This document shows, piece by piece, positions 26,446 through 62,764 of a stretch of 64,000 nucleotides of DNA (positions are counted from its first letter, which is position 1; every line of letters starts with the position of its first letter). Source of the stretch: an uncultured delta proteobacterium (GTDB lineage Bacteria; Desulfobacterota; Desulfobacteria; Desulfobacterales; SG8-13); assembly GCA_963848135.1 (NCBI GenBank), contig CAWKCK010000009.1:62001-126000 (forward strand), written 5' to 3'. The position numbers and the translations under genes were made by a program. The notes under the pieces were generated by a model. The model had not been told where the DNA came from, made no database searches, and saw nothing but the letters and a program-made list of their open reading frames with translations.

Positions 26446-26856
26446 ATGTCGAAAGATTATGAAGTCAAACTGCGTGTACCATTCCACGATCTTGATCCTC
26501 TCCAGATCGTTTGGCACGGAAATTACATGAAATATTTTGACATGGCCCGATTCGGCCTTTTCAAACAGGCGGGTTTGGATCTGTACGAGTATTTTGTCAA
26601 TCAGCAGATTGTTTTTCCAGTTACCCGTTTTTCTTCCAAGCATATTATTCCCCTCCGCTATGACGACGAGTTTGTATGCAAGGCGACCGTTGTAGAAGCC
26701 GTGTATAAAATCGGCATATCGTTTGAAATCCGGTTGACCGCAAACGGACAGCTCTGCACTCGGGGAACCAGCGAACAGGTTGCCGTTAAAATGCCGGAAA
26801 TGGAGATGCAGTTTGAGATTCCGAGCGATATTACCACGGCATTGGGGTGCGCCTGA
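26446..26856 (+). CDS. Acyl-CoA/acyl-ACP thioesterase (4HBT/YbgC hot-dog fold, type found in APE clusters)
   Basis: VPFHDLDPLQIVWHGNYMKYFDMAR, PLRYDD. Confidence 0.88.
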   Translation: MSKDYEVKLRVPFHDLDPLQIVWHGNYMKYFDMARFGLFKQAGLDLYEYFVNQQIVFPVTRFSSKHIIPLRYDDEFVCKATVVEAVYKIGISFEIRLTANGQLCTRGTSEQVAVKMPEMEMQFEIPSDITTALGCA

Positions 26857-36435: not shown

Positions 36436-37701
36436 TCAATCGTCAATCGATTTGCCGAAGGCTTTTTTAATCAGACGACGGTTCCGTGGACGGAACGTAT
36501 CGTCCTCTAATTCTTTTCGAACCACCTGTTGAAACAGGTTGAACATTTTGATCTGTTGGGATTGGTCCCTGTAGAAGGTATCCCAGGCATAGGACAGCAG
36601 TTCCTGGAGTTTCTCAGGCGACATGTGCTTGGGTTGGAATACGACCTTGTCGGCAGAGTAGTCATTCCAATCAAAGGAAAAAATCCGATTTTGCCGTAGC
36701 AGGTCGTTATACACCCGTGTGTGGGGGAAAGGTGTCAGCACCGTGAATTCCGCAAGATCGAGCTCTATCTCCAGGAGAAAATCGATCAATCGTTTAATGC
36801 CGTCTTCCGTGTGATCATCCAGCCCCAGTAGAATCGTGCCCTCAACGGCGATACCATAGTCGTGGTACCGCTTGATCCGCTCCCGAATGACGTCCGACGT
36901 GTCGAATACCGCCTGGTAAACATACCACGCACCGGCGCGTGCCGCCAGGTCGAGGACCTCGGGTTTGTCTTCTATCGGGTGGCTGCACCATTTTTTCTTC
37001 AAGGGGATCATCTCCCGGAAAAGATCCAATTCCCACTGCGTGTCCTGGGCGAGAGAGTTGTCGACCAGGAAAAGGCGGTTGTTATCGATGCCGGCCATCT
37101 CTGCGATGGACTTTTCGATCGGCCGGGGTCGGAAATGCCTTCCTCCCAGGTAAGCCACCGCGCAGGGATAACAGTTGTAACGGCATCCGCGTGAAGCGTG
37201 CACCAGGTCGACCATCTGGATGCCGCGGTAGTTATATAGTTCTTTCTTTAAAATATCGCGCCTGGCGGAGCCCACGATTTCTATCGGCGGCCGGTCGTTA
37301 AGATAATCGTATACTTTCTTCAGATCACCGTTACGCCAGTCCGCACAAACCTCTGGCATCCGTCCTTCGGCTTCACCGAGGAAAACTGCATCAGCATGGG
37401 TTTGTGTTTCCTCGGCATGGAGCATAGTGGCGATGCCGCCGAAGATGACCTTTATGCCTTTATCACGATAGATGTCGGCAATTTCCCAGCCCCGATTGAC
37501 CTGAAGCGTAAGCATCATCGATATGCCCACAAAATCGACCGGCTCATCGAAATCGATGCTGTCCACGTTTTCATCAATAAAGTCCACTGCGACCCCATCC
37601 GGCAATGCGGCAGCAAAAACCACCGGGCCGTGAGGCGGCAAATGAAATTCGGTCTGCCGATTCAGCTTCGGCCACTTGGGATAAATCAGGCGAAATTTCA
37701 T
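36436..37701 (-). CDS. B12-binding-domain radical SAM protein
   Basis: DENV, VIFGG, GEAE, SRGCRYNCYPC, VDN, LTPFPHT. Confidence 0.9.
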   Translation of the reverse strand: MKFRLIYPKWPKLNRQTEFHLPPHGPVVFAAALPDGVAVDFIDENVDSIDFDEPVDFVGISMMLTLQVNRGWEIADIYRDKGIKVIFGGIATMLHAEETQTHADAVFLGEAEGRMPEVCADWRNGDLKKVYDYLNDRPPIEIVGSARRDILKKELYNYRGIQMVDLVHASRGCRYNCYPCAVAYLGGRHFRPRPIEKSIAEMAGIDNNRLFLVDNSLAQDTQWELDLFREMIPLKKKWCSHPIEDKPEVLDLAARAGAWYVYQAVFDTSDVIRERIKRYHDYGIAVEGTILLGLDDHTEDGIKRLIDFLLEIELDLAEFTVLTPFPHTRVYNDLLRQNRIFSFDWNDYSADKVVFQPKHMSPEKLQELLSYAWDTFYRDQSQQIKMFNLFQQVVRKELEDDTFRPRNRRLIKKAFGKSIDD

Positions 37702-40567: not shown

Positions 40568-40834
40568 ATGGAAAAACTGATCGACGAACTTAAGGTGAAG
40601 ATAATCGATGTTCTGGATCTGTCCGACGTTGGGCCCGAGAAGATCGATGCCGACGGCCCGTTTGTGGGCGGTGAATTAGAACTCGATTCGATCGATGTTC
40701 TGGAAATGGTTATTATGATTGAAAAGGAATACGGGGTCCGCATAGAAAATCGTGAACTCGGTGAGAAAGTCTTTTCGAGCTTGAGAACCCTGGCGACATA
40801 TATCTCCGAACACTCCCCGGGACTGCATAAATGA
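40568..40834 (+). CDS. Acyl carrier protein (ACP-2, APE/flexirubin type)
   Basis: LK..II..L.L.D..PE.ID, LELDSIDVLE, EKEYGVRI. Confidence 0.92.
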   Translation: MEKLIDELKVKIIDVLDLSDVGPEKIDADGPFVGGELELDSIDVLEMVIMIEKEYGVRIENRELGEKVFSSLRTLATYISEHSPGLHK

Positions 40835-42999
40835 CCGGAGTGCGGGCATTCATAACCGGATGGGGAATTGTCAGTGCTCTCGGGTCCGGTGTCTCAGCAA
40901 CCCAATCGCACCTCGCCGCGGGACGCAAGGGTATCCAGCCGTTGAGCCTTTTTCCCACCCCGGGCAACGCACCGCTTCCCGTGGGGCAGGTCGATGTCCC
41001 TCTAAAAGAACATTCCATACCCAGAACGCATCAGTTGGCACGTATGGCTGCGGACCAGGCCATGGCGGATGCCCGGCGGATGCCCGATGCTGTGGTGGTG
41101 GGCACGACGACCGGCGGAATGCATACCACAGAGCGATTGCTGGAATCCAATGTTAATGATCCCGCTGCGTATCGCTGGCATGCCGCGGGTTCAGTGGCTG
41201 AAGATCTGGCCGCTCGGTTCAATTGTAAGGGTGCCGTGGTGACCGTTTCCACGGCGTGTTCTTCGGGGGCTGTCGCGATCAAGATCGCGCTGGAAATGAT
41301 CAGAACCGGGATGGCACGTTGCGTCCTCACCGGCGGAGCCGACGCCTTGTGCCGATTGACGTATTATGGATTCAATGTGCTTCAGCTTATCGATCCACAA
41401 GGCGCCCGTCCTTTGGACAAGAACCGGCGGGGGATGTCCGTGGCCGAAGGGGCAGCGATGCTGTTGCTCACGGCTGATGATTCCCGCAATGCCGTTGCCG
41501 AACTCCTTGGCGCCGGTCTGTCCTGCGATGCGTATCACCCGGCGGCCCCTGAACCAGAGGGCAGGGGAGCTTATCAGGCCATGATCTCGGCCCTCGGGGA
41601 TGCCGGCTTTTCAGCCTCAGAAATCGACTATATCAATCTTCATGGTACGGGTACGCCGGATAACGATCTTGCGGAAGCCAGAGCCGTTACGCGGTTGTTC
41701 AAGGATCGACAGCCGCCGGCATCTTCGGTCAAGGGCGCCCTCGGGCATCCGTTGGCTGCTGCCGGTGCTGTCGAAGCGGTGATTTCAGGGATCTGCCTTT
41801 CCGGGCAATGGATACCCGCTAACACCGGTACCGATTCACCCGATCCCGCGCTGGGGTTGCATCCCGTGATGACACCTCGGAAAATCCCGGTCCGCACGGT
41901 GCTGTCCAATTCTTTCGGGTTTGGCGGGAACAACGCTGCCGTGGTGATCGGCTCGCCGGCGGCGCATGGTCGCCACTCCACACGGCGGACGACCGGACCG
42001 ATGCCGGTGAGGGCAAGTGCTTGTATGACCGGCGCCGGTGCCACGGACAGGACATTGGCGTGCATAAAATCCGGAGAAATTTGCGCGGGCACACTCACGG
42101 CTGGAGAGATGGCCAGCCGCCTTCCCGGAAGGATTGTCAGGCGGTTGAAATGCCTGCCGCGGCTTGTGATGGCGCTGGCTGACGAGGCCTATCGTAATTC
42201 GGGGGACCTCGAGCCGCCGACCGATATCTTTTTCGGCACCGGTTGGGGCGCCCTGTCGGAAACCTATGGATTTTTAGAAAGTCTTTTTAATACTGGTGAT
42301 AAATTTTCCAGTCCAACAGATTTTATCGGTTCGGTGCACAACGCTCCCGCCGGTCAGGTGGCAATGATGTTCGGTGCCACCGGTACCAACGTGACCACGA
42401 CCGGTGGGGATTATTCGTTTGAACAGGCGTTGATGTCGGCCGGTCTTCTGGGACCCGTGACAGGCAAAACAGCCCTGGTTGTCGGTGCAGACGAAAATCA
42501 TGAAAAGCTATCGGGGCTTTTCGACCCATCCGTGATGGCCGGCGGAACGCCCGCAGCCGGCGGCGGTGCACTCATTATAGGCCCCGGCGCATCTGCAGCC
42601 GAGGTGACCATCTTTGCGACTTTTTACGCCCTGACGGATAACCAGCCGGATATTGTTGACGCTCTGGTTCAGCAACTTGGGGGACCGGCGCGAATCAATG
42701 CCGCATTCGGCGCCGTTCTGGTTGGAATACCCGCGGCTTTTAAAAAAGCCGGAACGGCACAACAGGTGGCTTTTATTTCCCGAACCGAATTCAATCGACC
42801 CGTGATCGGATATCGAAAATTCACCGGTGAGTTTGCCTCCGCCTCTGCCGTCGCAGCCATTATGGCCGTAGAATTTACAAAAGAAGGTCAAGTCCCCGAT
42901 GCCATCTGCCACGGCCGGACCGGCTCATTGGCCGGCAGAGGGATCCTCGTTCTGGGGCTTGGCAGTGCCGTCACGGCCGTTGAGGTGATGCGTCGGTGA
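40831..42999 (+). CDS. Ketosynthase - chain-length-factor fusion (722 aa)
   Basis: N-half is an active KS (STACSSG, NLHGTGT, GHPL, SNSFGFGGNN). C-half is CLF-like (RRL.., SPTDFIGSVHNAPAG; GGDYSFEQAL where the Cys would be). Confidence 0.88.
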   Translation: MTGVRAFITGWGIVSALGSGVSATQSHLAAGRKGIQPLSLFPTPGNAPLPVGQVDVPLKEHSIPRTHQLARMAADQAMADARRMPDAVVVGTTTGGMHTTERLLESNVNDPAAYRWHAAGSVAEDLAARFNCKGAVVTVSTACSSGAVAIKIALEMIRTGMARCVLTGGADALCRLTYYGFNVLQLIDPQGARPLDKNRRGMSVAEGAAMLLLTADDSRNAVAELLGAGLSCDAYHPAAPEPEGRGAYQAMISALGDAGFSASEIDYINLHGTGTPDNDLAEARAVTRLFKDRQPPASSVKGALGHPLAAAGAVEAVISGICLSGQWIPANTGTDSPDPALGLHPVMTPRKIPVRTVLSNSFGFGGNNAAVVIGSPAAHGRHSTRRTTGPMPVRASACMTGAGATDRTLACIKSGEICAGTLTAGEMASRLPGRIVRRLKCLPRLVMALADEAYRNSGDLEPPTDIFFGTGWGALSETYGFLESLFNTGDKFSSPTDFIGSVHNAPAGQVAMMFGATGTNVTTTGGDYSFEQALMSAGLLGPVTGKTALVVGADENHEKLSGLFDPSVMAGGTPAAGGGALIIGPGASAAEVTIFATFYALTDNQPDIVDALVQQLGGPARINAAFGAVLVGIPAAFKKAGTAQQVAFISRTEFNRPVIGYRKFTGEFASASAVAAIMAVEFTKEGQVPDAICHGRTGSLAGRGILVLGLGSAVTAVEVMRR

Positions 43000-44345
43000 A
43001 GGTACTGCTGGTTTCTGCAAATACACACGCACAGCCCTATCCGGTGTATCCCCTCGGACTCGATTATGTCGCCGGAGCAATCGAAAAGCGTCACCGGGTT
43101 CAGATCGTGGATATGAATGCTCTGGGCGACAATAGTGCCCTGCGCGACCGCATCGCCGGGTTTACACCCGATATCATCGGCCTGTCCATTCGCAATATCG
43201 ACAATACGGATACGACATCGCCGAAAGGGTTTCTCGCCGACCACCGGCGACTGACCGATACGATCCGCACCTGTTCCCAGGCAACCCTTGTGCTTGGCGG
43301 CAGCGGGTTCACCATTTTTCCCTTCGAAACGGTTCATGCCCTAGCGGCCGACTACGGAATTATCGGCGAAGGCGAGCGGTTGTCCGTGTTGTTGGACGCC
43401 CTCGAAAATCGGCAAGACGTTTCTATGATTCCCGGCATCGTCACGCGGCGATCCCAGGGGGTCATTCCCCCGCCGTGGAAGAAGGGTATCCGCAGGCGCT
43501 TCGACCCGAATCAGCCCCATGTCGCCCATTACCTTGAAAAGGGCGGCATGCTCAACCTTCAGTCCAAACGCGGCTGCTGTTTCAACTGTATCTATTGCAC
43601 CTATCCGCACATCGAAGGCCGGGCGCCGAGGCTTTTTGCCCCGGAAGAGGTCGCAGGGAACGCACGCCGTCTGCAGGAGGCTGGGGCCAAATACTTTTTC
43701 GTGACCGACTCGGCCTTCAATTCGAGTCCATCTCACAGCCTCGCGGTGGCACTGGCCTTCCGGAGAGCCGGAGTATCGATACCTTGGGGGGCCTTTTTTG
43801 CCCCAGTGACCCCGCCTGGGGATTATTTCCGAATTCTGTCCGATTCCGGCTTGACCCATGTCGAATTCGGTACCGAATCCCTTTCCGATCCGGTACTCAG
43901 AGCGTATCGCAAACCTTTTCAGGCCGGGGACGTCTTCAAGGCCCACAACGCCGCAATCGATGTTGGCCTTTATGTCGGGCATTACTTCCTACTGGGTGGG
44001 CCCGGTGAAACCACCGCTACCGTGGACCAAACCCTGGAACGCACCGCCCGACTCGATAAATGCGTGCTGTTTTTTTTCTGTGGGATGCGGATTTATCCCC
44101 AAACCGAGCTTTTTAACATCGCTCGTGCTGAGGGGCAGGCAAACGGGTCGGAGACACTGCTGGATCCGGTTTTCTACCGGTCGACATCGATAGACAGCCG
44201 GGAAATACTGGCCAGGGTGCAGGAAAAGGCCGCTGGACAGCCGAACTGGATTATCGGGGATGGCGGAGAGCAGACGGCCGAAGTCCTTTCGCGGTTGTAT
44301 CGTCGCGGGCATACAGGGCCACTCTGGGAGTACCTGATCCGTTGA
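42996..44345 (+). CDS. Lipid-biosynthesis-type B12-binding radical SAM protein
   Basis: PYPVYPLGL.Y, GLSIRNIDN, LGGSGF, QSKRGCCFNCIYCTYP.IEG, FVTDSAFN, GGPGET, GMRIYP.T. Confidence 0.9.
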   Translation: MKVLLVSANTHAQPYPVYPLGLDYVAGAIEKRHRVQIVDMNALGDNSALRDRIAGFTPDIIGLSIRNIDNTDTTSPKGFLADHRRLTDTIRTCSQATLVLGGSGFTIFPFETVHALAADYGIIGEGERLSVLLDALENRQDVSMIPGIVTRRSQGVIPPPWKKGIRRRFDPNQPHVAHYLEKGGMLNLQSKRGCCFNCIYCTYPHIEGRAPRLFAPEEVAGNARRLQEAGAKYFFVTDSAFNSSPSHSLAVALAFRRAGVSIPWGAFFAPVTPPGDYFRILSDSGLTHVEFGTESLSDPVLRAYRKPFQAGDVFKAHNAAIDVGLYVGHYFLLGGPGETTATVDQTLERTARLDKCVLFFFCGMRIYPQTELFNIARAEGQANGSETLLDPVFYRSTSIDSREILARVQEKAAGQPNWIIGDGGEQTAEVLSRLYRRGHTGPLWEYLIR

Positions 44346-44440: not shown

Positions 44441-44821
44441 ATGTGGCATGTGATTGATCGCATTGAAACGTCTGATACGGGCGAAATATCTACCCAAGTA
44501 TGTGTGCCTTCGGGTTCCTTATGGTATTCCGGTCATTTTCCTGACGCACCGATTCTGCCGGGAATTGCCCAACTCGGGATCGTGTATGAGGCGATACGCA
44601 GGGTTATCGGGCGAGAATTCTGCCTTGTCGGTGTCCGGCGGATAAAATTCAAGAAGATGATCAGGCCTCACGAGTCTCTTAACATTTCGATAACGCCCAA
44701 GAAGGACAAAGTAGGGACCTACGCCTTTCAAATACATATAGGAAACGACCTGGCTTGCAGCGGAAACCTCACGTTGGAAAAATGCGACGGCATTCGTGAT
44801 CTTGAGGTTAGAAAAATTTAA
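44441..44821 (+). CDS. ApeI/FabA-like dehydratase
   Basis: WYSGHFPDAPILPGIAQL, IKFK..IRP. Confidence 0.85.
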   Translation: MWHVIDRIETSDTGEISTQVCVPSGSLWYSGHFPDAPILPGIAQLGIVYEAIRRVIGREFCLVGVRRIKFKKMIRPHESLNISITPKKDKVGTYAFQIHIGNDLACSGNLTLEKCDGIRDLEVRKI

Positions 44822-44841: not shown

Positions 44842-45132
44842 ATGACGACGGACATGACTATAGATAAAATTATTCTTCGGGTGGCTGAAATTACGATTCA
44901 GGAATTGAAACTCGAAGACGTGACGCCGGAGACATTCGAGCCGACAATCGACCTTGTCGATGAAGTCGGTGTCGATAGCATGGATTTGGCCACTGTAGCA
45001 CTGGTGATCCGCGATGAGTATGCCATCAGAATCGATGAGGATGACTATCCGAAACTGACCAACATTCAATTGATCGCGGAATATATCGAACGCAAGTTAA
45101 AGGAGAAAGCCGCCGAAGGGGCTGCTGCCTGA
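44842..45132 (+). CDS. Acyl carrier protein (ACP-3)
   Basis: Acidic, 96 aa, GVDSMDLATV, EY.IRIDE; aggag SD. Confidence 0.88.
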   Translation: MTTDMTIDKIILRVAEITIQELKLEDVTPETFEPTIDLVDEVGVDSMDLATVALVIRDEYAIRIDEDDYPKLTNIQLIAEYIERKLKEKAAEGAAA

Positions 45133-45145
45133 CCTGGAGAATCTT

Positions 45146-46237
45146 TTGTTGAATAAACCCGACATAGCAGGCGACAGGGGAAGCCAGGCACCGGAAAAAG
45201 AATGGAAATTTTCGGACATTCTGACAGACCCCCTGATACAGGCGCGCTGGCAGAAAGTCAAAAAGTGGTTTTTTCTGCGGGAATCGACTTACGATATGAC
45301 CAATCGCTGCAATATCCGTTGCAGCGGATGCTACTACTATGAGGGTGAGAAACAGTTTGCCCGCGAAAATAGGGATCCGCAAGCATGGCGCCGATTGATG
45401 CAGGCGGAAAAAAAACGGGGTATAACCTACGTTGTACTCGCTGGCGCAGAACCGGCGCTGGTGCCGGATCTCTGCGAGGTTTGCTACCAGGAAATGCCCC
45501 TGGGGGCCATTGCCACCAACGGTTTGATTTTCTTTCCGAAATCGATTCAATACCGGATTCATATTTCCGTGTGGGGCACAGATGAAACCAGCCTGAAAAT
45601 CCGCAAAGCCCAAAACATGCTTCACAAGCAGCTTGAAAACTACCGCAATGATCCCAGAGCTGTTTTTGTCTATACATTCACGCGCACGAATATTACCCAA
45701 GCCTCTCAGGTGGCTGAGATTCTGGCCAATGACGGGGTGCGAATGACGTTTAACATGTTTTCAGCGCCGGTGGGCTACACTGGTGATTTGGGCCACACAG
45801 ACGATTCACTCAAGGAGTGCCGGCAGACCATGGTCGACCTGTTGGAGACGTATCCGGACACGATCCTGTTTTCAAAATATAACGCCGTTGTCCACACCCA
45901 AACGGTAGGGTTGCACGAATTGTTCAGCTGTCCCTATCCGCGCATGAACCCGTCCACTGCGGTCGGACTCGGAAGATCTTTCCGTCAGTATCGGACCGAC
46001 CTGAACTGGAACCGAAGTGCGGCCTGTTGTGTCCCGGGTACCGATTGCAACGACTGCCGTCATTATGCTTCGGGAAGTGCTGTTGTCACGGCGCGGATGT
46101 TTCGCCACGCGACAAACCCTGATACCTTTAGAGCCTGGCTTGATTATGTGGATACGTACCTTGCCGTCTGGGTCATGGGTTATGAAAAAGGCCCCAACCT
46201 TTCCGATGCCCTGATTGCGCCACCCGGGCACGGGTAA
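45146..46237 (+). CDS. Radical SAM protein (no B12 domain) with C-terminal Cys motif; paralog A
   Basis: YDMTNRCNIRCSGCYY, AGAEP, ATNG, C-terminal CCVPGTDCNDC. Confidence 0.88.
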   Translation: MLNKPDIAGDRGSQAPEKEWKFSDILTDPLIQARWQKVKKWFFLRESTYDMTNRCNIRCSGCYYYEGEKQFARENRDPQAWRRLMQAEKKRGITYVVLAGAEPALVPDLCEVCYQEMPLGAIATNGLIFFPKSIQYRIHISVWGTDETSLKIRKAQNMLHKQLENYRNDPRAVFVYTFTRTNITQASQVAEILANDGVRMTFNMFSAPVGYTGDLGHTDDSLKECRQTMVDLLETYPDTILFSKYNAVVHTQTVGLHELFSCPYPRMNPSTAVGLGRSFRQYRTDLNWNRSAACCVPGTDCNDCRHYASGSAVVTARMFRHATNPDTFRAWLDYVDTYLAVWVMGYEKGPNLSDALIAPPGHG

Positions 46238-46340
46238 ATATAGCGTTACCTCCAGAGATGCTGTCATCCATCACCAGAGTATTGAAAAACCATTTTTCAA
46301 CCTCTTGGTACTCCCCAGCAGGTGTTTAAGGAGTGTTCGT

Positions 46341-47339
46341 ATGAAGACCGTCAGCTCGTTGCTGAATCCAGAATGGTATGAGCGCTACAAAAGAATTTCA
46401 AAGCTGAATATCAGAAGCTCTATTTATGATGTCACCAACCGGTGCAATCTGCGCTGTAAGGGCTGTTTTTTCTTCTCGTCAGGCGAACACAAAGTGGCGC
46501 CAGAGGAGATGGATATCAAAAAATGGGAAGCATTCATCGAGAATGAAAAGAAGCGTGGTGTCAACCTTGCGATTCTGATTGGCGGAGAACCGACACTTTG
46601 CCTTGACAGGGTTGAGGCATTTTACAAACGCCTGCCCACATTCTGCGCCACTAACGGCGTGATCAAGGTCCCCCGGGAGCGGTTTCCGGACATGATGATC
46701 GGTATTTCTCTATGGGGTGATGAACAGGATGAAAAGACCCTGCGCGGCAAAGACACTTTTCGTATCTCGAGTAAAAACTATGCCGGTGATCCCTACGTTT
46801 ACTATCTCTATACGGTCACGCCCCATCAGATCGGTAAAACAGAGAGAATCATCCGCAAGATCAGAGATGCAGGCCTCAAAGTGCACATGCAGCTTCTTTC
46901 CAACGATGAAGGCGTCGACGGGTTTTCCTGGACAACGAATCAGCTCGAAGCCATCCGCCTGGAAATGGATGCCATGCTTGATGCCTATCCGGAAACCATG
47001 ATTTCTTCGAAATATTACCACGAGATTATTACATCCGGCAAAATGGCAGGCCGCCGCTTCGGCTGGGATGAGTGCCCGTCGGTTACGCTACCGCTGGACA
47101 ACCGCAATCCGCGCCCCAAGCGCCTGATCGATTTCATCCGCTGGGCATCGGATCTCAACACCATGCATCGCTGTTGCACGTCCGAGACCAGGGATTGCGG
47201 CACCTGCAAAGATGGCGCCGCCCATATGAGTTGGGTGATGGTGAACAAACGCGCCCACATTCGTACGACCAAAAGTCTGCAGAACTGGATCGAGGTCTAT
47301 GAAATGTTTGCCAAACTTTATCAGTTTATCCCCTGGTAA
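46341..47339 (+). CDS. Radical SAM protein (no B12 domain) with C-terminal Cys motif; paralog B
   Basis: YDVTNRCNLRCKGCFF, IGGEP, ATNG, C-terminal CCTSETRDCGTC. ATG 46341 follows an aggag SD. Confidence 0.88.
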   Translation: MKTVSSLLNPEWYERYKRISKLNIRSSIYDVTNRCNLRCKGCFFFSSGEHKVAPEEMDIKKWEAFIENEKKRGVNLAILIGGEPTLCLDRVEAFYKRLPTFCATNGVIKVPRERFPDMMIGISLWGDEQDEKTLRGKDTFRISSKNYAGDPYVYYLYTVTPHQIGKTERIIRKIRDAGLKVHMQLLSNDEGVDGFSWTTNQLEAIRLEMDAMLDAYPETMISSKYYHEIITSGKMAGRRFGWDECPSVTLPLDNRNPRPKRLIDFIRWASDLNTMHRCCTSETRDCGTCKDGAAHMSWVMVNKRAHIRTTKSLQNWIEVYEMFAKLYQFIPW

Positions 47340-47464
47340 ACGCGACCGTTTGACCATAAACCATTGCTGAAGAGTTTCGGTGGGTCGCCAAGTCCTGAAT
47401 TGGTCGCCATTTGGATCGATTGATCGAATACGCCGGGTGAAATCGACCCTAAATAGGGTGCTGT

Positions 47465-48715
47465 ATGTCATCGAAGGACGTAGTCATTGTCGGTTATGAT
47501 GCCGTGTCTGCCCTGGGAACGGACCTTGATACCCAGTGGGATCGTGCTGCAGATGGACAAAGTGGTATCGGACGGTTGAGCCGATTCCCTGTTTGCGATG
47601 ATTTCCCGGTGCATATCGCCGGAGAAGTGCCTGATATCGATACGGCGCCATACCCCTTCCTCAGCCCTCGCAGCCTTGCCCTTTGGCCGTCACCGATATT
47701 CAAATATGCCATGTTGGTGGTCCACCGGGCCCTCGTCAAAACCGGTATTGAGATTACGCCGGAACTTTCACCCAGAGTCGCCGTCACTTTCAGTTCAGCT
47801 GTCGGGGGGCAGGATGCCCTCCTGGCTGCCGACAGGCAAATGGTCGCAGCAGGCAAACTGCCGCCACCCTATGCCAATCCGAATTCGTGCATCAACATGG
47901 TCGGTGGGAAAATATCGATTTTGACCGGGGCGACCGGACCCATCACTGCCACGATCACGGCCTGTGCCACCGGGGTAACCTCCGCGATCGTCGGAGCGAT
48001 GCTTCTCGAGGCTGGCCGGGCCGATGTGGTTATCAGCGGCGCGGTTGACTTCGCGCTGGTCGAGCCGATCGTGGCCGGGTTTGCGACAATGAACGGTGCC
48101 TACCAGACCCATCCCGAACGACCACCGGAAGTGCCGGCAAGGGCCAGTCGCCCCTTCTCCATCGATCGACGCGGTTTTGTTATCTCCGAAGGCGCCGGTT
48201 GCATCATTCTGGCCACGCGGGAGTTCGCCAATACCAACAATTTGGCTTACAATTTCAGGATCGCCGGTTGGAGCATGACCTCGGATGCCCATCATTTCGT
48301 GGCCCCACGCCTTGAGACGATTGCCCGATGCATGGCCGAAAGCATTGACATGGCAGGGATATCGATGCATGATGTCGCTTCCGTCAATGCGCACGCGGCT
48401 TCCACGAGAGTCGGTGACAAGGTGGAACACCAGGCCTTAAAAACGGTATTTGGTAAGAATATTCCCCCGGTAACCGCCAATAAATCCTTGATCGGTCATG
48501 CAATGGGCGCCTCCAGTGCCATAGAGTCCGTTTTTGCCATGGAAGGGATGCGCAGAGACACCATTCTGCCGACGATTAATTATACGCCGGACCCCGAAAT
48601 GATCCTCGATTGTGTGCCGGAAGGATCGCGTTGTCTCGAGCAGGAGTTTGTTTTGAAGAATTCATTCGGTTTCGGTGGCTGCAACGCATGCATGGTCCTG
48701 CACAGGATCGCCTGA
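47465..48715 (+). CDS. Beta-ketoacyl-ACP synthase (FabF-like)
   Basis: ITACATG, SRPFS.DR.GFV.SEGAG, SDAHH, NAHAAST, GHAMGAS, NSFGFGG. Confidence 0.92.
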   Translation: MSSKDVVIVGYDAVSALGTDLDTQWDRAADGQSGIGRLSRFPVCDDFPVHIAGEVPDIDTAPYPFLSPRSLALWPSPIFKYAMLVVHRALVKTGIEITPELSPRVAVTFSSAVGGQDALLAADRQMVAAGKLPPPYANPNSCINMVGGKISILTGATGPITATITACATGVTSAIVGAMLLEAGRADVVISGAVDFALVEPIVAGFATMNGAYQTHPERPPEVPARASRPFSIDRRGFVISEGAGCIILATREFANTNNLAYNFRIAGWSMTSDAHHFVAPRLETIARCMAESIDMAGISMHDVASVNAHAASTRVGDKVEHQALKTVFGKNIPPVTANKSLIGHAMGASSAIESVFAMEGMRRDTILPTINYTPDPEMILDCVPEGSRCLEQEFVLKNSFGFGGCNACMVLHRIA

Positions 48716-48716
48716 A

Positions 48717-49982
48717 ATGAAAGCATCCCTGAACAGACGTGTTTTCGTTGTCGGTTATGGAGCGGCCACGGCGTTGGGTAAGTCGTTTGAAACGACCTGG
48801 CAGAGAGCGGTGAGTGGGCATGCGGGTTTCAGGAGACTCACCCGTTTCCAGATGGATTCAGATGCCCCTATCGTGGGAGAGATTCCGGAATGGGATCCAA
48901 CCAGCCTCGATTTCGTGGTCCCCAGAGACGCTTACAATTGGAATGCCAGTTACGTCTTCCTGACCATGGCCGTATGCCGGGAGGCCCTGGCACACGCCGG
49001 TCTTGAAATCAACGGCGAAACCGGCCCCAGAACGGCTTGTCTGATCGGTTCGGCGCTTAACGGTACGGATGCCTTTCGGGTCGCCAGCGACAACTACCTC
49101 AATCGTGGGCCCCTCAAGGTGAGCCCCTATCTGCTTCCCAATCTGTGCGCCAATCTTCCATCCGGCAAAGCCGGTATGCTGATGGGTTTTACCGGCCCGA
49201 TATTTTCGCCGCAGGGTGCCTGTGCTTCCGGCAACCACGCCATCGGTATCGGTGCCAGGATGATAAGGGACGGGGATTGCGATTTTGCCCTCGCGGGCGG
49301 CGTCGACACCTGTTTGATTCCTGAAATCTTACAGGGGTTCGCCAATATGCTTGCGACGATTTACGTCGGCCCCCAGGACCGCGCCTATGACGATCCGACT
49401 CAGGCCTCCCGCCCTTTCAGCATTGACCGCAAGGGAATCGTTCTTTCAGAAGGGGCGGGGGTGGTTGTGCTGGCCGCCGAAGATAAAATGGCTTCTTGGG
49501 GCCTGAGGCCGAGGGCCGAAGTGGCCGGTGTTGGGTGGACATCCGATGCTCATCATTTCACTTTACCCAATGCTGCAACGATTATCCGGGCCATCCGGGA
49601 GGCCATAGACGATGCCGGATTGACGGCAGATGATATCGGTTACGTCAGCGCCCACGGCACATCGACTCAAAAGGGCGACAAGGTTGAAGTTGAGTGTTTA
49701 AGGGAGGTGTTCGGCCGCAAACTGGCGAAAATACCGGTGTCTTCGAACAAATCCCAAATCGGTCACACGCTCGGGGCATCCGCAGCCATAGAAGCGGCTC
49801 TGGGGATCGAAGCGATGCAACAGGGGCTGATCTTGCCCACGGTCAATCATATCCCTGATCCTGAACTGGCGGACGTGGATGTGGTTCCACATACGGCCCG
49901 CAGACACGCCCATGAATTTTTCCTGTCCAATGCGTTCGGTTTTGGCGGCACCAACTGCTGTATCGTGTTCAGAGGAGTATGA
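48717..49982 (+). CDS. Beta-ketoacyl-ACP synthase (FabF-like), tandem paralog
   Basis: QGACASG, SRPFS.DR.G, SDAHH, SAHGTST, GHTLGAS, NAFGFGG. ATG 48717. Confidence 0.92.
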   Translation: MKASLNRRVFVVGYGAATALGKSFETTWQRAVSGHAGFRRLTRFQMDSDAPIVGEIPEWDPTSLDFVVPRDAYNWNASYVFLTMAVCREALAHAGLEINGETGPRTACLIGSALNGTDAFRVASDNYLNRGPLKVSPYLLPNLCANLPSGKAGMLMGFTGPIFSPQGACASGNHAIGIGARMIRDGDCDFALAGGVDTCLIPEILQGFANMLATIYVGPQDRAYDDPTQASRPFSIDRKGIVLSEGAGVVVLAAEDKMASWGLRPRAEVAGVGWTSDAHHFTLPNAATIIRAIREAIDDAGLTADDIGYVSAHGTSTQKGDKVEVECLREVFGRKLAKIPVSSNKSQIGHTLGASAAIEAALGIEAMQQGLILPTVNHIPDPELADVDVVPHTARRHAHEFFLSNAFGFGGTNCCIVFRGV

Positions 49983-49983
49983 T

Positions 49984-50463
49984 TTGAGACCGAAACCCTT
50001 CGTTCCGACGCCTCTTGATGGAGACAACGGCTACTACCGGGATGAAACCGAGGGATTTGCCTGGCATTGCAGCCGTCTGAGAACCCTTTATGCGGATACA
50101 GACCGCTCACAAGTGGTTTATCATTCCAATTTTCTGCGCTATTTCGAGTTCGGACGGGCCTCACTGATGCGCGATACCGGTTACCCGTACAAGGAGATTG
50201 AAGACAGCGGCACCATTTATCCGATCATAGAAATCGGCGTTAACTACTACAACCCGGTTCACTATGACGATGCGATGTGCATTTATACCCGACCGTCAAT
50301 TCTTGAAAGGGTCAAACTTCGTTTCGACTACGTCATTACCAAAGAAAAGACCCGCGAAATCGCCTGTAAGGGCTTCACGCGACACTGTGCCATCAATACC
50401 AAAGGCACTCCGGTTGAAGTCGATGAGAAGACGGCCCACTTATGGAAGACATTTCCCAAATAA
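49984..50463 (+). CDS. Acyl-CoA/ACP thioesterase (YbgC/FadM family)
   Basis: RTLYADTD...VVYHSNFLRYFE.GR, P..YDD. TTG start at 49984. Confidence 0.88.
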   Translation: MRPKPFVPTPLDGDNGYYRDETEGFAWHCSRLRTLYADTDRSQVVYHSNFLRYFEFGRASLMRDTGYPYKEIEDSGTIYPIIEIGVNYYNPVHYDDAMCIYTRPSILERVKLRFDYVITKEKTREIACKGFTRHCAINTKGTPVEVDEKTAHLWKTFPK

Positions 50464-51968
50464 TTGAATCCGCGCGATTACCCCTTGATATCCCGATCCG
50501 ATCGCACCTGATCGACCACTGCTTTAGAAATCGTTCAGTTCTGCCCGCCGTTGAGGCAGCTGAGATCATGGCTCAGGCGGTCAAAGGATTTCAACCAGCT
50601 GTGGATGTGACCACAATGTGCGATCAGCAGTTTGACAAATTCCTTTACCTCGATCCACAGGCGGGAAAATTTACCGCACACTGCGATATATCCGTTTACG
50701 CGGGTGGTGATATCAAAGCCGTACTGGCGACCCGGACCGTATCGAAAGCCGCCGGTTTTGCTAGGGTCAAAGTGCATGCTGCCGCCATCTTTCCGAGGGA
50801 AAAGCATCCGATTCAAAAACGCGCCCTGGATTTGACATCTGCCCTTGAGGGGATCTGTTTTTCAGTGTCTAGTGAAAGTATATACCGCGATCTTGTTCCG
50901 TTCGGACCGGCCTTTCGTAACGTGACCATACTGCACCTTTCGTCTGAAGGGGCGATCGCCGAGATTCGTTCACCTCAGAACCATAGCGCTACAGATCTGA
51001 CACGGCATTTGGGCTCGCCATTTGTCCTCGATGCTGCCTTTCATGCGGCCTGTATCTGGGGTCAGCGATTTAGCGGGGTCGTTGCGTTTCCCGTGGGGAT
51101 TGATCGCCGACAGATCGTTAAACCGACCGGCGCCGGAGAAACTTTTTTTGCACATGTTGCCCCAATCCGCATCGATCCGGAATTCTTAATATTTGACCTG
51201 CGGATTTATGATTCAAAAGGCGTTTTTCATGAGATTGCCACCGGAGTTCGCATGCGGGATGTCAGCGGTGGAACGATCAAACCGCCACCATGGATTGCAG
51301 CTGGGGTAGAGAACCAAACGGCAGCCCGGATTGACAAACGGTGTAAAGCCACGTCCCTGATCGACCTCGCGAGCGTGGTGCCGTTTGCCGACAGGGTCCT
51401 ATCCGCTGAAGAAAGAGACCGTCTTAATACAATGGGTCCTAAACGCAGGAAAAGTTTTCTGTCCGGGCGTTTGGCGTGTAAACGGGTTTCCCGGCAACTT
51501 TCGGGTCAAGATACCGTGATCGATCCGCGGGCGATTACCACCATTACGCCTGGCAGCCCCCGACCACGCTGTCCCCTGACCGATGAACGGTCCTTCGTTT
51601 CGTGTTCGGTGGCCCATGACAACCGTTTCGCCATTGCCGTTGCTTCCGACCGACGAGTGGGGGTGGATGTCGAGAAGGTTTCCGAACGGGTGTTGAAATC
51701 GCAGCGATTGTACATGAGCGATTCTGAGGCCGCTCTGGTTAAGGCATCCGTGCCCGCTGAGAGGATAGAAACCGCCGTTCGAATCTGGTCCATCAAGGAA
51801 GCGGTGACCAAAGCACTCGATATCAGTCTTGCCGATGCGTGGCATCGGGTGCGGGTGACAGTCGTCGGACCATATGAAAGCTTTTTTCAGATCGGTGATG
51901 ATGTCCCGAATGTTGCCTTTCACGATGTCATTGAAAAACATATCATTACACTCGTAACGTTGTCTTGA
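50442..51968 (+). CDS. PKS-type dehydratase domain fused to a 4'-phosphopantetheinyl transferase (Sfp/ACPS) domain
   Basis: N-terminal HLIDH......LPAV, FGPAFR, LDAAFH (double hot-dog DH His/Asp). C-terminal SVAHD, VGVDVE, WSIKEAVTKA (PPTase). Confidence 0.85.
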   Translation: MEDISQIIESARLPLDIPIRSHLIDHCFRNRSVLPAVEAAEIMAQAVKGFQPAVDVTTMCDQQFDKFLYLDPQAGKFTAHCDISVYAGGDIKAVLATRTVSKAAGFARVKVHAAAIFPREKHPIQKRALDLTSALEGICFSVSSESIYRDLVPFGPAFRNVTILHLSSEGAIAEIRSPQNHSATDLTRHLGSPFVLDAAFHAACIWGQRFSGVVAFPVGIDRRQIVKPTGAGETFFAHVAPIRIDPEFLIFDLRIYDSKGVFHEIATGVRMRDVSGGTIKPPPWIAAGVENQTAARIDKRCKATSLIDLASVVPFADRVLSAEERDRLNTMGPKRRKSFLSGRLACKRVSRQLSGQDTVIDPRAITTITPGSPRPRCPLTDERSFVSCSVAHDNRFAIAVASDRRVGVDVEKVSERVLKSQRLYMSDSEAALVKASVPAERIETAVRIWSIKEAVTKALDISLADAWHRVRVTVVGPYESFFQIGDDVPNVAFHDVIEKHIITLVTLS

Positions 51969-53328: not shown

Positions 53329-53682
53329 TCATTTGGGCATGAATTTTTCCACTGCCATCCGGGCGGCCCACCGCAGAAAAATCCGGGTATACTCGGCCCC
53401 GGCCAGATACATCCCCGCTAAAAAAACCAAGTGTGACAGACCATACGTCAAGGGACCACCGATAACCGCCACAAGAGGTTCCTGCAAATAGACAGCCAGG
53501 GTCGTCAAGGCACCAACGGCTGGCCAACCGATGACATAGCTAAAGCCGATGAGACATATCCCGAGAACAATCCTGGCGGAGGGGCGCTGTTTGAAGGCCT
53601 CCAAGTCCGCCTTTTCCTCAACCGCCTTGCGTACGAATTCGGTTTCCGTAATTTTTTTGATGAGTCCTGATGTCATCCGCAC
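53329..53682 (-). CDS. Small hypothetical membrane protein
   Basis: Two hydrophobic segments; SY.IGWP and YGLSH..F..G.YLAG pattern. Confidence 0.7.
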   Translation of the reverse strand: MRMTSGLIKKITETEFVRKAVEEKADLEAFKQRPSARIVLGICLIGFSYVIGWPAVGALTTLAVYLQEPLVAVIGGPLTYGLSHLVFLAGMYLAGAEYTRIFLRWAARMAVEKFMPK

Positions 53683-54041: not shown

Positions 54042-54791
54042 ATGTTGCCATCTAACGTGGACAAAACCAGGATCTCACCGTCAGTCGATGAGCTTTGGGC
54101 TTACTTCGATCGCATCTTCTGCATATCTCTGGAAGATCGCCCAGACCGGCGCCAATCGGCCCGGGATCAGTTTCGCAAAATTGGTTTGGCGGACAGAGTC
54201 GAGTTCGTCATCGTCAACAAACACCCGACCAACAGCGAGCAGGGGATATTTGAATCCCACATGAAATGCATCAGAATGGGTATCAAGGCCGCCGCTCAAA
54301 CCACTCTCATTTTTGAAGATGACGTCGTCTTTGACAGATTTAACACCTGTGTGCTGGAAGAATGTATACGTTTCTTGTCTTCGAAGATTTCGTGGAACAT
54401 CTTTTTCCTCGGTTGCCTCGCAGATGCCAGCCAAAAAACCGAATACGGGTCCGTTTTAAAAGTGCGTTACCGCGGCTTATCGCATGCGTACGTCATCAAC
54501 CGCAATTTTGCCGAATCCCTGGCCAGGCAGATCTGGAAAAATACGCCTTTCGACACGATGTTGCGGAAGCTGTCTCCTTACTATTATGCTGTTTACCCGG
54601 CATTTGCCTTTCAGAGCAATGCGCGCACGGACAATATGCGGCTGCTGAAGCGTGACCGAATGCGGCGGCTCTTTGGGGGACTTAAAAGAATCCAAAAGTT
54701 AAATGAATGGTATCTTCGCCACCGGTCAGTCGTCATCGGCATTCATATTTTCCTGATCCTGATTCTGCTGATACTGGTGGCCGCGCACTGA
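54042..54791 (+). CDS. Glycosyltransferase family 25-like protein
   Basis: IFCISLEDRPDRR, GIFESH, LIFEDD, HAYVI, C-terminal TM. Confidence 0.8.
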   Translation: MLPSNVDKTRISPSVDELWAYFDRIFCISLEDRPDRRQSARDQFRKIGLADRVEFVIVNKHPTNSEQGIFESHMKCIRMGIKAAAQTTLIFEDDVVFDRFNTCVLEECIRFLSSKISWNIFFLGCLADASQKTEYGSVLKVRYRGLSHAYVINRNFAESLARQIWKNTPFDTMLRKLSPYYYAVYPAFAFQSNARTDNMRLLKRDRMRRLFGGLKRIQKLNEWYLRHRSVVIGIHIFLILILLILVAAH

Positions 54792-54811
54792 GCTGTGGAT
54801 TGTTTCCAACA

Positions 54812-57800
54812 ATGAAAAGAACATCGATAAACTGGCTTTTCCTGGCTGTGACCATTCTGCTGGTAAGCGGTCTGTTCGGGATCGGATGGCACCGGATTCA
54901 GATCGATACCGATATCGTCGGCGCTCTTCCGGATAGTGATCCCGTGATTGCGGACGCCGCCTATCTGTTTCGTCATCACCCCATGCAGGGCCAGGTGGTT
55001 ATCGACGTCTTCCTCGATAAGACCGATTTAGAGGCTCTGATAGCCTGTGCCCGAAAGGTTCAAAAACGTTTGAAGGCCAGCGGACTGTTTAAAGCGGTCG
55101 GTATCGAGGACACCGGAAAACTCATGCCGGATCTGCTCGATTATGTATCTGTCAACCTGCCGGTGCTCTTTACGGCCGATGAATTGCGAGATCTGATTCA
55201 ACCGCTCCTGCAGCCGGCTATGATCAATCAACAGCTTGAACAGATCCGCTCCAGCCTGCTGGGGCTCGACAGCATCGGCCAAACGGCCCTGATCGCAAAA
55301 GATCCATTGGATTTTCGGCGTCTGGTGCTCGCACGGTTATCGCATCTGGCTCCATCAACCGGTGCCCGCATCTATCGGGGCCAACTCCTCTCCGCCGATG
55401 ACCGGCATATTCTGATCGTTGCCAGACCGGTTGCTTCCGGCACGGACACGGTTTATGCCAGCCAGTTAACCGAATTAATGAATGACCTGTCGGTAGAACT
55501 CAACCGGGAGTATCGGCCGGCCGGACAGCGGGTGACGCTGACACCGGTTGGTGCATACCGTTCCGCCCTCGACAATGAGCAGATAATCAGGAAGGATGTC
55601 ACTTACGCCATCGCCCTGGCCACCCTCGGTATCGCCATGCTGCTATTATTTGCTTTTCCGCGGCCGGCCATCGGTCTTTTTTCCCTGGTGCCGGCTGTTG
55701 CCGGAACCATGCTAGCCCTCTTTGTCTTCTCCCTGTTTCATAAGTCCCTATCGATCATGGTTCTCGGCTTTGGGGGGGCCATCATATCGATCACCGTCGA
55801 CCAGGGAATCGCCTATCTCTTGTTTCTTGATCGACCCTACGATACCAGCGGGCGGGAGGCCTCAGAAGAAGTGTGGAACATCGGTCTGCTGGCCGTTTTG
55901 ACCAGCATCGGCGCCTTTGGCGCGCTCTGCTTCAGTGGGTTTTCCGTGTTTGTTCAGTTGGGGCAGTTTACAATGCTCGGTATCGCGCTATCCTTTCTTT
56001 TCGTGCATGTCATTTTTCCCCACATTTTCCCGCGCATGCCGGCGGGCCGACCACGATCCCTGCACCTGCAGAAGGTGGCTGACGCCTTAGCCCGAACAGG
56101 GACGAGAGGACTGTGGGTCGCGGTCGTATTCGCCTCTGTTATGCTGATATTCGCCCAACCCGAGTTTAATGTCAGCATGCGGACCATGAACACCGTGGGC
56201 GCCGATACCATTGCCGCCGAGAAATTGCTCGCTGATGTTTGGGGTGATATATTCTCCAAAGTTCATTTGCTGGCGGAAGGCCAGAGTATTGCAGCGCTTC
56301 AGGCCAAGGACGATATCCTTCTCGATCAGTTGGATCGTGATTTGGCCTCCGGGGTTCTTTCATCGGGGTTTGTGCCTTCCATGCTCTTTCCCAGTCACGA
56401 GCGTCGGAAAAACAATTTTAACGCCTGGAAGCAATTCTGGAATGGTGAAAGAGTTGAGAGCCTCGAGAGAACAATCGGGGAACAATCGGCGGCGCTTGGT
56501 TTTGCCCCAGGGGCTTTCTCGCCCTTCTATGAAATGTTGAGTGCGGTTAAAGCCCCCGGAATGAACGTTCCAATTCCTGCCGAATTTCTCAGTTTTCTGG
56601 GAATTTCAGAACTTGCGGGCGAATCGAAATGGATCCAGGTATCGACCTTCACCACCGGCCCGGCATATGACGCCAAGCAGTTTCATGATACTTACGGGGC
56701 ATCGGGCCGGTTGTTCGATCCGGCGTTCTTTTCGGAGCGACTCGGGAAGCACCTGTTCGATACGTTCTCGAAGCTGTTTCTCATTATTGCGGTCAGTGTC
56801 ATCATTCTGCTCATTTTTTTCTTTCTTGACCCCGTGCTGGTTATCATCTGCTTGTTGCCGGTGGCGTTTGCTTTAATTTCGACCCTTGGAACGTTGAATA
56901 TCATCGGGCATCCCCTGGACATCCCGGGACTGATGCTGTCCATTATCGTTTTAGGTATGGGCATCGATTATTCGCTCTTTTTTGTGCGGTCGTTTCAACG
57001 TTACGGGGCGTTGGCTCATCCGTCATTTGGTCTGATTCGATTGGCCGTTTTCATGTCGGCAGTTTCCACCATGATCGGTTTCGGTGTCTTGTGCGGTGCC
57101 GATCATACACTACTGAAAAGCGCCGGCATCACCTCTCTTTTAGGCATCACATATTCGGTGATCGGCGCCTATGTCATTCTGCCGCCGGCACTCAGTTATG
57201 TTCAGCGGCGGCGCCGCTCGAAAACGATCAAGAGTGGTCGTTTGCGGGATCGGGTCTTGAGCCGCTATCAGGGCCTGGAAGCCTATCCGAGATTATTTGC
57301 GCGGTTCAAAATGCGCCTCGATCCCATGTTCTTAGAAATAGCGGAGATTTTTAAGACCAGTGGCGATATTAAAACGATCATTGACATCGGTTGCGGATTT
57401 GGTGTGCCGTCGTGTTGGCTTCTCGAAAGGTTCCCGCATGCGGAGCTGTTCGGTATCGAGCCGTCTGCCGGCCGTGTCAGGGTTGCCTCCGTTGTGGTGG
57501 GTGGAAGAGGGGACATCACTCAGGGCCGGGCACCGGATATACCTGCGGTCTCGCGGGCAGCCGACCTGGCCATGATGCTCGATATGGTTCATTTTTTAAA
57601 CGATGAAGACCTGGTTCTGACCCTGGGAAGATTGCATGATCGCCTGCTGGATAACGGTCGGTTAGTCATTCGGGCGGCCGTCCGTCCGCGACGGCGTTTT
57701 CCATGGGCATGGTGGCTGGAGAATTTTAAGCTCTGGCTGTCCCATGTTCCCGTCTGCTACCGATCACCGGAACGATTGAAAGTCATGGTGTCCCAGGCGG

Positions 57801-57907
57801 GATTTCGCATCGAGAATACGCTGCCTTCCGGCAATCACCAAGAACTCGTCTGGCTCATCGGGTGCGTTGACGCTGGTTCTGGTCCACGATTGACAGGCCA
57901 ATGCTGA
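54812..57907 (+). CDS. MMPL/RND-family exporter fused to a C-terminal class I SAM methyltransferase
   Basis: Two TM bundles with SITVD / GMGIDY, STMIGFGVL; C-terminal IDIGCGFG, LDMVHFL. ATG 54812. Confidence 0.88.
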   Translation: MKRTSINWLFLAVTILLVSGLFGIGWHRIQIDTDIVGALPDSDPVIADAAYLFRHHPMQGQVVIDVFLDKTDLEALIACARKVQKRLKASGLFKAVGIEDTGKLMPDLLDYVSVNLPVLFTADELRDLIQPLLQPAMINQQLEQIRSSLLGLDSIGQTALIAKDPLDFRRLVLARLSHLAPSTGARIYRGQLLSADDRHILIVARPVASGTDTVYASQLTELMNDLSVELNREYRPAGQRVTLTPVGAYRSALDNEQIIRKDVTYAIALATLGIAMLLLFAFPRPAIGLFSLVPAVAGTMLALFVFSLFHKSLSIMVLGFGGAIISITVDQGIAYLLFLDRPYDTSGREASEEVWNIGLLAVLTSIGAFGALCFSGFSVFVQLGQFTMLGIALSFLFVHVIFPHIFPRMPAGRPRSLHLQKVADALARTGTRGLWVAVVFASVMLIFAQPEFNVSMRTMNTVGADTIAAEKLLADVWGDIFSKVHLLAEGQSIAALQAKDDILLDQLDRDLASGVLSSGFVPSMLFPSHERRKNNFNAWKQFWNGERVESLERTIGEQSAALGFAPGAFSPFYEMLSAVKAPGMNVPIPAEFLSFLGISELAGESKWIQVSTFTTGPAYDAKQFHDTYGASGRLFDPAFFSERLGKHLFDTFSKLFLIIAVSVIILLIFFFLDPVLVIICLLPVAFALISTLGTLNIIGHPLDIPGLMLSIIVLGMGIDYSLFFVRSFQRYGALAHPSFGLIRLAVFMSAVSTMIGFGVLCGADHTLLKSAGITSLLGITYSVIGAYVILPPALSYVQRRRRSKTIKSGRLRDRVLSRYQGLEAYPRLFARFKMRLDPMFLEIAEIFKTSGDIKTIIDIGCGFGVPSCWLLERFPHAELFGIEPSAGRVRVASVVVGGRGDITQGRAPDIPAVSRAADLAMMLDMVHFLNDEDLVLTLGRLHDRLLDNGRLVIRAAVRPRRRFPWAWWLENFKLWLSHVPVCYRSPERLKVMVSQAGFRIENTLPSGNHQELVWLIGCVDAGSGPRLTGQC

Positions 57908-62746: not shown

Positions 62747-62764
62747 AGAGGACAAAGACCTTTA

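Follow-up and report, generated by a model that had tools for sequence, protein, structure and literature searches.

In an uncultured delta proteobacterium of the Desulfobacterales lineage SG8-13 (assembly GCA_963848135.1), a 64,000-nucleotide stretch of contig CAWKCK010000009.1 (positions 62,001 to 126,000; hereafter the window) carries a seven-gene block at 44842-51968, which encodes an acyl carrier protein (ACP), two paralogous radical S-adenosylmethionine enzymes (rSAM1 and rSAM2, together the pair), two ketosynthases (KSs), a thioesterase and a dehydratase fused to a phosphopantetheinyl transferase (PPTase). Judged from sequence, and with slightly better than even confidence, the block represents the special-fatty-acyl arm of an aryl-polyene-lipid or 'ladderane-like' membrane-lipid pathway in Desulfobacterota. 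The predicted substrate of the rSAMs is, as the best inference, an ACP-tethered acyl chain. Gene content, catalytic motifs, gene order and co-occurrence with a kinase fusion, a B12-binding rSAM (B12-rSAM) and, often, the acyltransferase PlsY define the block, from which the reaction steps proposed below are predicted throughout. The block and its 5' neighbour consist of the following genes:

44842-45132, + strand: dedicated acyl carrier protein (ACP3) with DSM motif (PF00550 / PP-binding)
45146-46237, + strand: radical SAM enzyme 1 (rSAM1), with CxxxCxxC and five invariant C-terminal Cys (PF04055)
46341-47339, + strand: radical SAM enzyme 2 (rSAM2), paralogue of rSAM1, ATG start (Pfam Radical_SAM)
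47465-48715, + strand: FabF-like ketosynthase KSa, Cys-His-His, HA[AT]ST variant (Pfam ketoacyl-synt)
48717-49982, + strand: FabF-like ketosynthase KSb, Cys-His-His, HGTST, ATG start (Pfam ketoacyl-synt)
49984-50463, + strand: YbgC/4HBT-type hot-dog thioesterase, TTG start (PF13279; TIGR00051, 78.6 bits, cut-off 68.7)
50442-51968, + strand: polyketide synthase (PKS)-type double-hot-dog dehydratase (PS-DH) fused to an AcpS/Sfp-type PPTase (PF14765 and PF01648)
44441-44821, + strand: FabZ/ApeI-like hot-dog dehydratase, 5' neighbour of the block (Pfam ApeI-like/FabA; GHFP..PILPG motif)

Layout and conservation of the block

All seven genes lie on the + strand, separated by 13, 103, 125, 1, 1 and -22 bp (gene calls with Shine-Dalgarno-like start support), which agrees with an earlier note on this DNA that described seven co-oriented, tightly spaced genes with gaps of 1 to about 125 bp and one overlap, here of 22 bp. 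The paralogy proposed in the same note is likewise borne out: the two rSAMs share 29% identity over 327 aa and the two KSs 42%, with Cys-His-His intact in both. The FabZ/ApeI-like gene, omitted from the block as first drawn, ends 20 bp before the ACP gene, and a consensus scan of this gap reveals neither a promoter-like nor a terminator-like site. It follows that a longer co-oriented run from 40568 has the block as its 3' part, the order being an ACP (40568), a fusion of KS and chain length factor (KS-CLF), a B12-rSAM of the TIGR04072 family, the FabZ/ApeI-like gene and the block itself. Its GC content of 51-57% is the same as that of the flanks.

To describe its conservation, the best 80 of 281 genome stretches with relatives of rSAM1 were taken and joined by 19 regions from a phylum sample and one metagenome locus, giving 100 loci in which some genomes appear twice; 73 of them, the long loci, have at least 8 kb of sequence downstream. 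By record name, the relatives belong to Desulfobacterales, Smithella/Smithellaceae, Syntrophaceae/Syntrophales and Desulfatitalea. The block travels as a unit, as the earlier note had suggested: in 97 of 98 loci rSAM1 has an ACP gene 5' of it, rSAM2 lies downstream of rSAM1 in all 93, and the complete core of pair, both KSs and dehydratase is present in 68 of the 73 long loci (KSa 69, KSb 69, thioesterase 67, dehydratase 68). An ApeI-like gene stands 5' of the block in 81/95 loci, and PlsY stands 3' of it in 38 of the long loci. Four loci keep the ACP and the pair without the KSs, which are lost or moved (L005, L009, L023, L112), and two show the interleaved order rSAM1-KSa-rSAM2-KSb. In one genome, a second copy of the pair forms a single 707-residue frame (L112:9843-11957, G384:C29), which follows an ACP, has no KSs and borders on another B12-rSAM cluster; this one case weakly suggests that the two enzymes may act as a heterodimer.

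Among 401 sampled Desulfobacterota genomes, 36 match rSAM2 at E<=1e-10, comprising 30 with the pair, one with a single relative of 32% identity and five with weak partial matches. The 30 pair-carrying genomes include 11 families besides the window's own, and the block is also found in Desulfatitalea alkaliphila M08but (L073). The catalytic residues are conserved across the homologue alignments. The KS Cys motif is retained in 82/82 KSa rows and 74/74 KSb rows, both KS His motifs occur in every variant printed (the eight commonest per motif), and every ACP variant listed has G-[IV]-D-S-M (98 rows). Median identity to the window is 68% for the ACP and 67-70% for the KSs. Sequence searches of solved structures return only ordinary FabFs for the KSs and only generic ACPs for the ACP, and the ESM Atlas matches bear generic names only.

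Several further observations concern these loci. In 24 Smithella-type loci (within L029-L080), a FabA-like dehydratase/isomerase heads the operon 5' of the block, which hints that unsaturated intermediates may be involved. A hydrophobic 117-aa hypothetical protein (window 53329-53682, - strand), with no Pfam or NCBIfam match, belongs to a family that recurs in 52 of the examined loci with the pair. One record (L019/G401) is titled Gammaproteobacteria, yet the genome search places it in the same phylum as the window.

The radical SAM pair and its wider family

Across 36 sequences each, rSAM1 holds invariant cysteines at C55/C59/C62 and C262/C294/C295/C301/C304, and rSAM2 at C35/C39/C42 and C245/C278/C279/C286/C289. 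Three of the C-terminal cysteines are invariant across 75 family members. The CxxxCxxC and GGE-type motifs of the radical SAM superfamily are invariant in both paralogues, the GAEP of rSAM1 being the consensus of distant relatives as well. We infer that the C-terminal cysteines of rSAM1 would form an auxiliary Fe-S site. Both enzymes, at 332-363 aa, are without a B12-binding domain by Pfam.

The structure model of rSAM1 has a pLDDT of 94.9 and a pTM of 0.93, and that of rSAM2 is less confident (pLDDT 78.2). The closest folds are tied between BlsE (Z 17.9, rmsd 3.6, 261 aligned), SkfB (17.5) and anSME (17.4), and Foldseek agrees. In the predicted model these matches reach into the C-terminal part, while the Pfam SPASM domain is unmatched. 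The modelled rSAMs thus resemble SPASM/twitch enzymes in architecture, at a remote distance; because the matches are remote, fold likeness gives no function. Sequence searches of solved structures likewise return only remote rSAMs. All NCBIfam cut-offs lie far above the scores of both enzymes (34 bits at best, where 340 are required), and neither falls in a curated family. Tetraether synthase (Tes) was considered and rejected, with about 32 bits to NF045702 against a cut-off of 450, a length of 332-363 aa and no rubredoxin domain.

By profile search, the family numbers 428 representatives at E<=1e-10, with many fragments among them, and 138 at the stricter threshold of E<=1e-30; a quick tree of the family served only for choosing alignments. 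The distant members are single-copy. The earlier note had held that its proposal would fail if rSAM homologues usually occurred without ACP or KS neighbours, and this is true of the wider single-copy family and false of the orthologues of the pair. Two distant members are fused to other domains, one to a PKS-type thioesterase (P0172) and one to an AMP-binding domain (P0213), and on a Methylomagnum plasmid a single relative lies beside ACP, TauD and non-ribosomal peptide synthetase genes. For the metagenome relatives, the 58 longer of 80 loci, minus one that represents the present cassette itself, fall into 28 groups at 70% identity. An acyltransferase gene (MBOAT, AT3, GNAT, HlyC, LuxI/FeeM) lies within 3 kb in 11 of the 28 groups and an oxygenase gene in four; sulfotransferase, TPR and autotransporter genes are other frequent neighbours of distant relatives. 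By gene neighbourhood, the distant members lean, short of proof, towards acyl-thioester substrates.

Two arrangements recur in this wider family. In 14 metagenome loci (including L146, L149, L153, L165, L196, L199 and L207), a single relative stands directly beside a pair of MBOAT and SGNH-like genes. On plasmids of Burkholderia, Alteromonas and Tistrella, a PaaA-like di-iron protein, a single relative and a hot-dog thioesterase/dehydratase form a module (L131 14246-17052; L132 14174-16529; L133 12319-18960). The Alteromonas module adjoins Tn3, with a similar match on an Enterobacter hormaechei plasmid, and the Burkholderia module adjoins halogenase, carrier, adenylation and acyl-homoserine-lactone-synthase genes. 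A product of this module was not found in the literature.

The wider cluster and the predicted acyl pathway

The block belongs to a cluster that begins at about 26.4 kb in the window and continues past the window end. Besides the block, the cluster contains a second thioesterase, a DAK2-DegV fusion, a GT2 glycosyltransferase, LpxL- and PlsC-type acyltransferases, a deacetylase and LolA, as well as further ACPs, KS/CLFs, FabG, ApeP, an MMPL-methyltransferase and four B12-rSAMs, with DarB, DarH and DarG-family genes at and beyond the window end. Three of its genes bear directly on the argument:

26847-28598, + strand: single-chain FakA-FakB (DAK2-DegV) fatty-acid kinase (Pfam Dak2/FakA-like_M/DegV)
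36436-37701, - strand: radical SAM enzyme with a B12-binding domain, part of the wider cluster and co-occurring with the pair (B12-rSAM 36436)
42996-44345, + strand: TIGR04072 'ladderane-cluster' B12 radical SAM (378 bits, cut-off 360)

The earlier note had called the block self-contained, a description that does not hold. The block is without ketoreductase and malonyl transacylase, its PPTase half is an optional fusion present in only 12 of the 73 long loci, and both the kinase fusion and B12-rSAM 36436 occur in 30/30 pair-carrying genomes, even when they lie on other contigs. It is a module, not an independent line. The kinase fusion is found in only 1/80 pair-free genomes, a comparison set made up of 27 genomes with a 50-65% homologue of 36436 and 53 others picked by their number in the sample, with the remaining 291 left out. 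Its N-x5-D-x-D-T motif is present in 30/30 aligned rows, and the Cys, H-phi-H and GGR motifs appear in the variants printed. These motifs match residues reported in part of PMC9136124 to be essential in S. aureus FakA/FakB, so that the ATP/Mg residues, the Cys-His-His triad and the FakB arginine are all present. The fusion does not reach the equivalog cut-offs for full-length FakA and FakB1, and its DegV domain scores above cut-off. In the sections available of PMC9136124 and PMC12594616, FakAB makes acyl-phosphate and PlsY consumes it.

The link to 36436 is graded by identity: all 26 genomes with a match of at least 69% carry the pair, and 27 of 57 genomes with a match (50-65% identity) are without it. 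Sampled genomes that combine a 36436 homologue of 59-65% with top-scoring TIGR04072 matches are mostly pair-free. Their clusters (20 loci and further ones) were rejected as sister clusters, the genes being about 20-50% identical (the 36436 homologue up to 65%), and for this reason they say little about replacement.

In the favoured model, KSa and KSb would elongate a chain on ACP3 together with the FabZ-like and PKS-type dehydratases, with FabG and malonyl supply coming from outside the block. The rSAMs, probably as a pair, would abstract hydrogen from the ACP-bound chain without oxygen, their putative C-terminal Fe-S site handling an electron or a radical. The hot-dog thioesterase would then free the acid, the FakA-FakB fusion would convert it to acyl-phosphate, and PlsY would pass the acyl group to glycerol-3-phosphate; PlsC, GT2/LpxL, MMPL and LolA would complete and export a glycolipid resembling an aryl-polyene lipid. 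Given an acyl substrate, oxidative desaturation or dehydrogenation is the foremost candidate for the radical step, and a tentative one. Closure of a C-C ring or formation of a cross-link is possible and somewhat less expected, a redox-neutral isomerisation, dehydration or epimerisation is doubtful, and any other reaction would come as a surprise. A bolder form of the model, which we regard as unlikely, envisages the two enzymes as a heterodimer, a radical machine belonging to a new family, which, free of O2, would create C-C bonds (a small ring or chain cross-link) or double bonds on the ACP-bound chain, leading through thioesterase, kinase and PlsY to an undescribed membrane lipid.

A number of observations weigh against the assignment to a special-fatty-acyl arm. 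The nearest solved folds work on nucleosides, sugars and peptides, not on acyl chains. In 17 of the 28 distant metagenome groups no acyltransferase was identified, nor was an ACP or KS identified beside the single-copy metagenome relatives, whose small open reading frames were only partly scanned. The pair-free exception, G290, has the kinase fusion, PlsY and the anchor genes. Co-occurrence in kin genomes is non-independent and can reflect one large inherited cluster. PlsY is not downstream in 35 of the 73 long loci, and the window genome is without the cassette-type PlsY, its two PlsY genes lying on other contigs with 28-31% identity.

Three other explanations bear on the same evidence. The block could make a starter or short acyl unit, which the wider cluster's KS/CLF polyene synthases would receive while it is still carrier-bound, the kinase activating an imported acid or serving another arm; we hold this to be rather unlikely. 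It touches the suggestion of the earlier note that the block replaces missing aromatic starter machinery. Neither the 62 window proteins nor the remainder of the contig include an ammonia-lyase or an ApeH-type acyl ligase, and the other contigs of the window genome offer only a lyase homologue of 34% and ligase homologues of at best 21-26%. A cluster-type lyase match is absent from 18 of the 30 pair-carrying genomes, and the run that ends with the block also includes the KS-CLF fusion gene, all of which suits a starter. That fusion is a single chain of 722 aa (40831-42999, + strand), and it was seen in at least 14 of 29 genomes only, in the regions fetched. The cluster ammonia-lyase (Pfam Lyase_aromatic) moreover accompanies the pair in 12 of the 29 other genomes, namely its source genome and 11 with 52-60% orthologues, mostly beside the kinase and adjoining the B12-rSAM; 4-coumarate-ligase-like genes also occur. 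The absence of starter genes here thus stands, yet since the pair and the aromatic route coexist, replacement could hold at most for some lineages. The release thioesterase and the downstream PlsY are also easier to reconcile with an end product than with a starter.

It is improbable that the pair instead modifies another part of the lipid (a sugar head group or glycerol) or a small molecule, in the manner of BlsE/BtrN/DesII-type enzymes on carbinol carbons, with its proximity to the ACP being historical. The best structural matches are indeed sugar/nucleoside and peptide enzymes, GT2 and a deacetylase are part of the cluster, and distant relatives often lie near MBOAT/SGNH, sulfotransferase, TPR and autotransporter genes; these structural matches are, however, remote at 12-19% identity, the ACP and the KSs are equally well conserved, and the ACP stays with the pair in the four loci without adjacent KSs. 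A stand-alone mini assembly line for a small secreted acid appears more improbable still. That the block brings along an ACP, KSs, dehydratases and a thioesterase would fit such a line, as would the separation of the block from other cluster genes in L028, L049, L062, L070 and L113, but the missing ketoreductase and malonyl transacylase, the optional PPTase, a PlsY directly 3' in three of these loci and the constant company of kinase and B12-rSAM speak against this reading.

Two further features of the cluster stand apart from these questions. An MMPL transporter of 1066 aa (54707-57907, + strand) carries a fused C-terminal methyltransferase. At window 61451-63913 (+ strand) and G000:C9:126344-130471 (L215), there is a flexirubin/dialkylresorcinol-like sub-cluster with an HpnR-like B12-rSAM, DarB (above the PRK06816 cut-off), KS/CLF, ACP, DarH and a DarG-family gene; DarA was not identified there, though no proper search was aimed at it. 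A link of the block to dialkylresorcinol synthesis, or a role of it as stand-in for DarA, was rejected, with DarB present in only 9 of the 29 other pair-carrying genomes.

The ladderane enzymes and the product of the 'ladderane-like' clusters of Desulfobacterota form a standing question in the text available of PMC13459092 and PMC9902471. With one ACP and two predicted soluble, B12-free rSAMs, the block is a compact test case for anaerobic formation of double bonds, rings and cross-links, and the predicted exit route through thioesterase, kinase and PlsY tells where the product may be sought. Because about 7% (30/401) of the sampled Desulfobacterota, including Smithella syntrophs, carry the block, the product could serve as a biomarker in sediments and digesters. 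Assignment of the reaction would open the wider enzyme family, and, if the pair closes rings, Desulfatitalea alkaliphila M08but would provide a model of ladderane-type chemistry that can be cultured and lies outside the anammox bacteria.

Comparison with known systems

The anammox Cluster I (kuste3603-3608), as described in the portions available of PMC10139942 and 10.64898/2026.05.19.726425, comprises an ACP, FabZ, two FabF paralogues and a radical enzyme, and shares with the block this compact set around a dedicated carrier. According to the same portions, one FabF of Cluster I has a dead triad, in the manner of a KS/CLF heterodimer, whereas both KSs of the block and their homologues keep Cys-His-His. 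Cluster I contains a phytoene-dehydrogenase-like enzyme and one B12-rSAM, in place of which the block has two B12-free rSAMs, a thioesterase and a PKS-type dehydratase. Identity with Cluster I is rejected on the published gene lists and the intact KS motifs. A phytoene-dehydrogenase gene is absent from the window by Pfam and lies nearby in 9 of the 29 other pair-carrying genomes.

Clusters of FAS II genes (fatty-acid synthesis of type II) and rSAM genes in deltaproteobacteria were already noted in 2009 (Rattray 2009, PMC2649909, in the text available), where Desulfotalea psychrophila made no ladderanes. Like the window, the 'ladderane' candidates of Kuenenia stuttgartiensis and D. psychrophila combine FAS II, several FabF paralogues and B12-rSAMs in an anaerobe. 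The clusters of that paper have B12-rSAM, phytoene-dehydrogenase-like and CoA-ligase genes, and a block with twin non-B12 rSAMs is undescribed in its available text. With its TIGR04072 B12-rSAM amid ACP, FabF and FabG genes, the wider cluster falls among the 'ladderane-like' clusters, which the accessible part of PMC9902471 records in Desulfobacterota metagenome-assembled genomes without an assigned function.

The surroundings of the block equally resemble the aryl-polyene (ape) and flexirubin clusters. The ape core of KS, CLF, ACPs, ApeI/ApeP dehydratases, ketoreductase and ApeM-type transporter is present, as are FabG, PlsC/LpxL-type acyltransferases, GT2, MMPL and LolA (E. coli ape gene roles after PMC8253772, in whose available text the word 'radical' is absent). 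Compared with ape, the window adds the FakA-FakB fusion together with six rSAM genes and is without an ApeH-type ligase and ammonia-lyase. The Xenorhabdus lipid described in the available part of 10.1101/2020.12.19.423268 consists of GalNAc-phosphate-glycerol and a cluster-made conjugated acyl chain. Relative to Firmicute FakA/FakB and PlsY, the kinase fusion has all catalytic residues reported in the sources available; it differs as a single chain of Gram-negative anaerobes, limited to genomes with the cluster, in contrast to general fatty-acid scavenging.

The pair shares with the SPASM/twitch rSAMs (BlsE 7vob, SkfB 6efn, anSMEcpe 4k36) a partial-barrel core and a C-terminal Cys-rich extension, and is set apart by its low identity of 12-19%, its Cys spacing of C..CC-x5/6-CxxC and its arrangement as paralogues behind an ACP; Tes (7tom) is a more distant fold, at Z 13.1. 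A 2026 review of lipid rSAMs (PMC13459092) covers Tes, Mss, Gms, Grs, Gmm, Cds, HpnH/J/P/R, Jaw5 and ladderanes and, in its available text, has no heading for the family of the pair. No title or abstract searched describes the pair, although subscription journals, figures and supplements lay outside that search and a mention may be missed. In conclusion, this kind of cluster has been known since 2009, and the cluster of the window carries an uncharacterised rSAM family.

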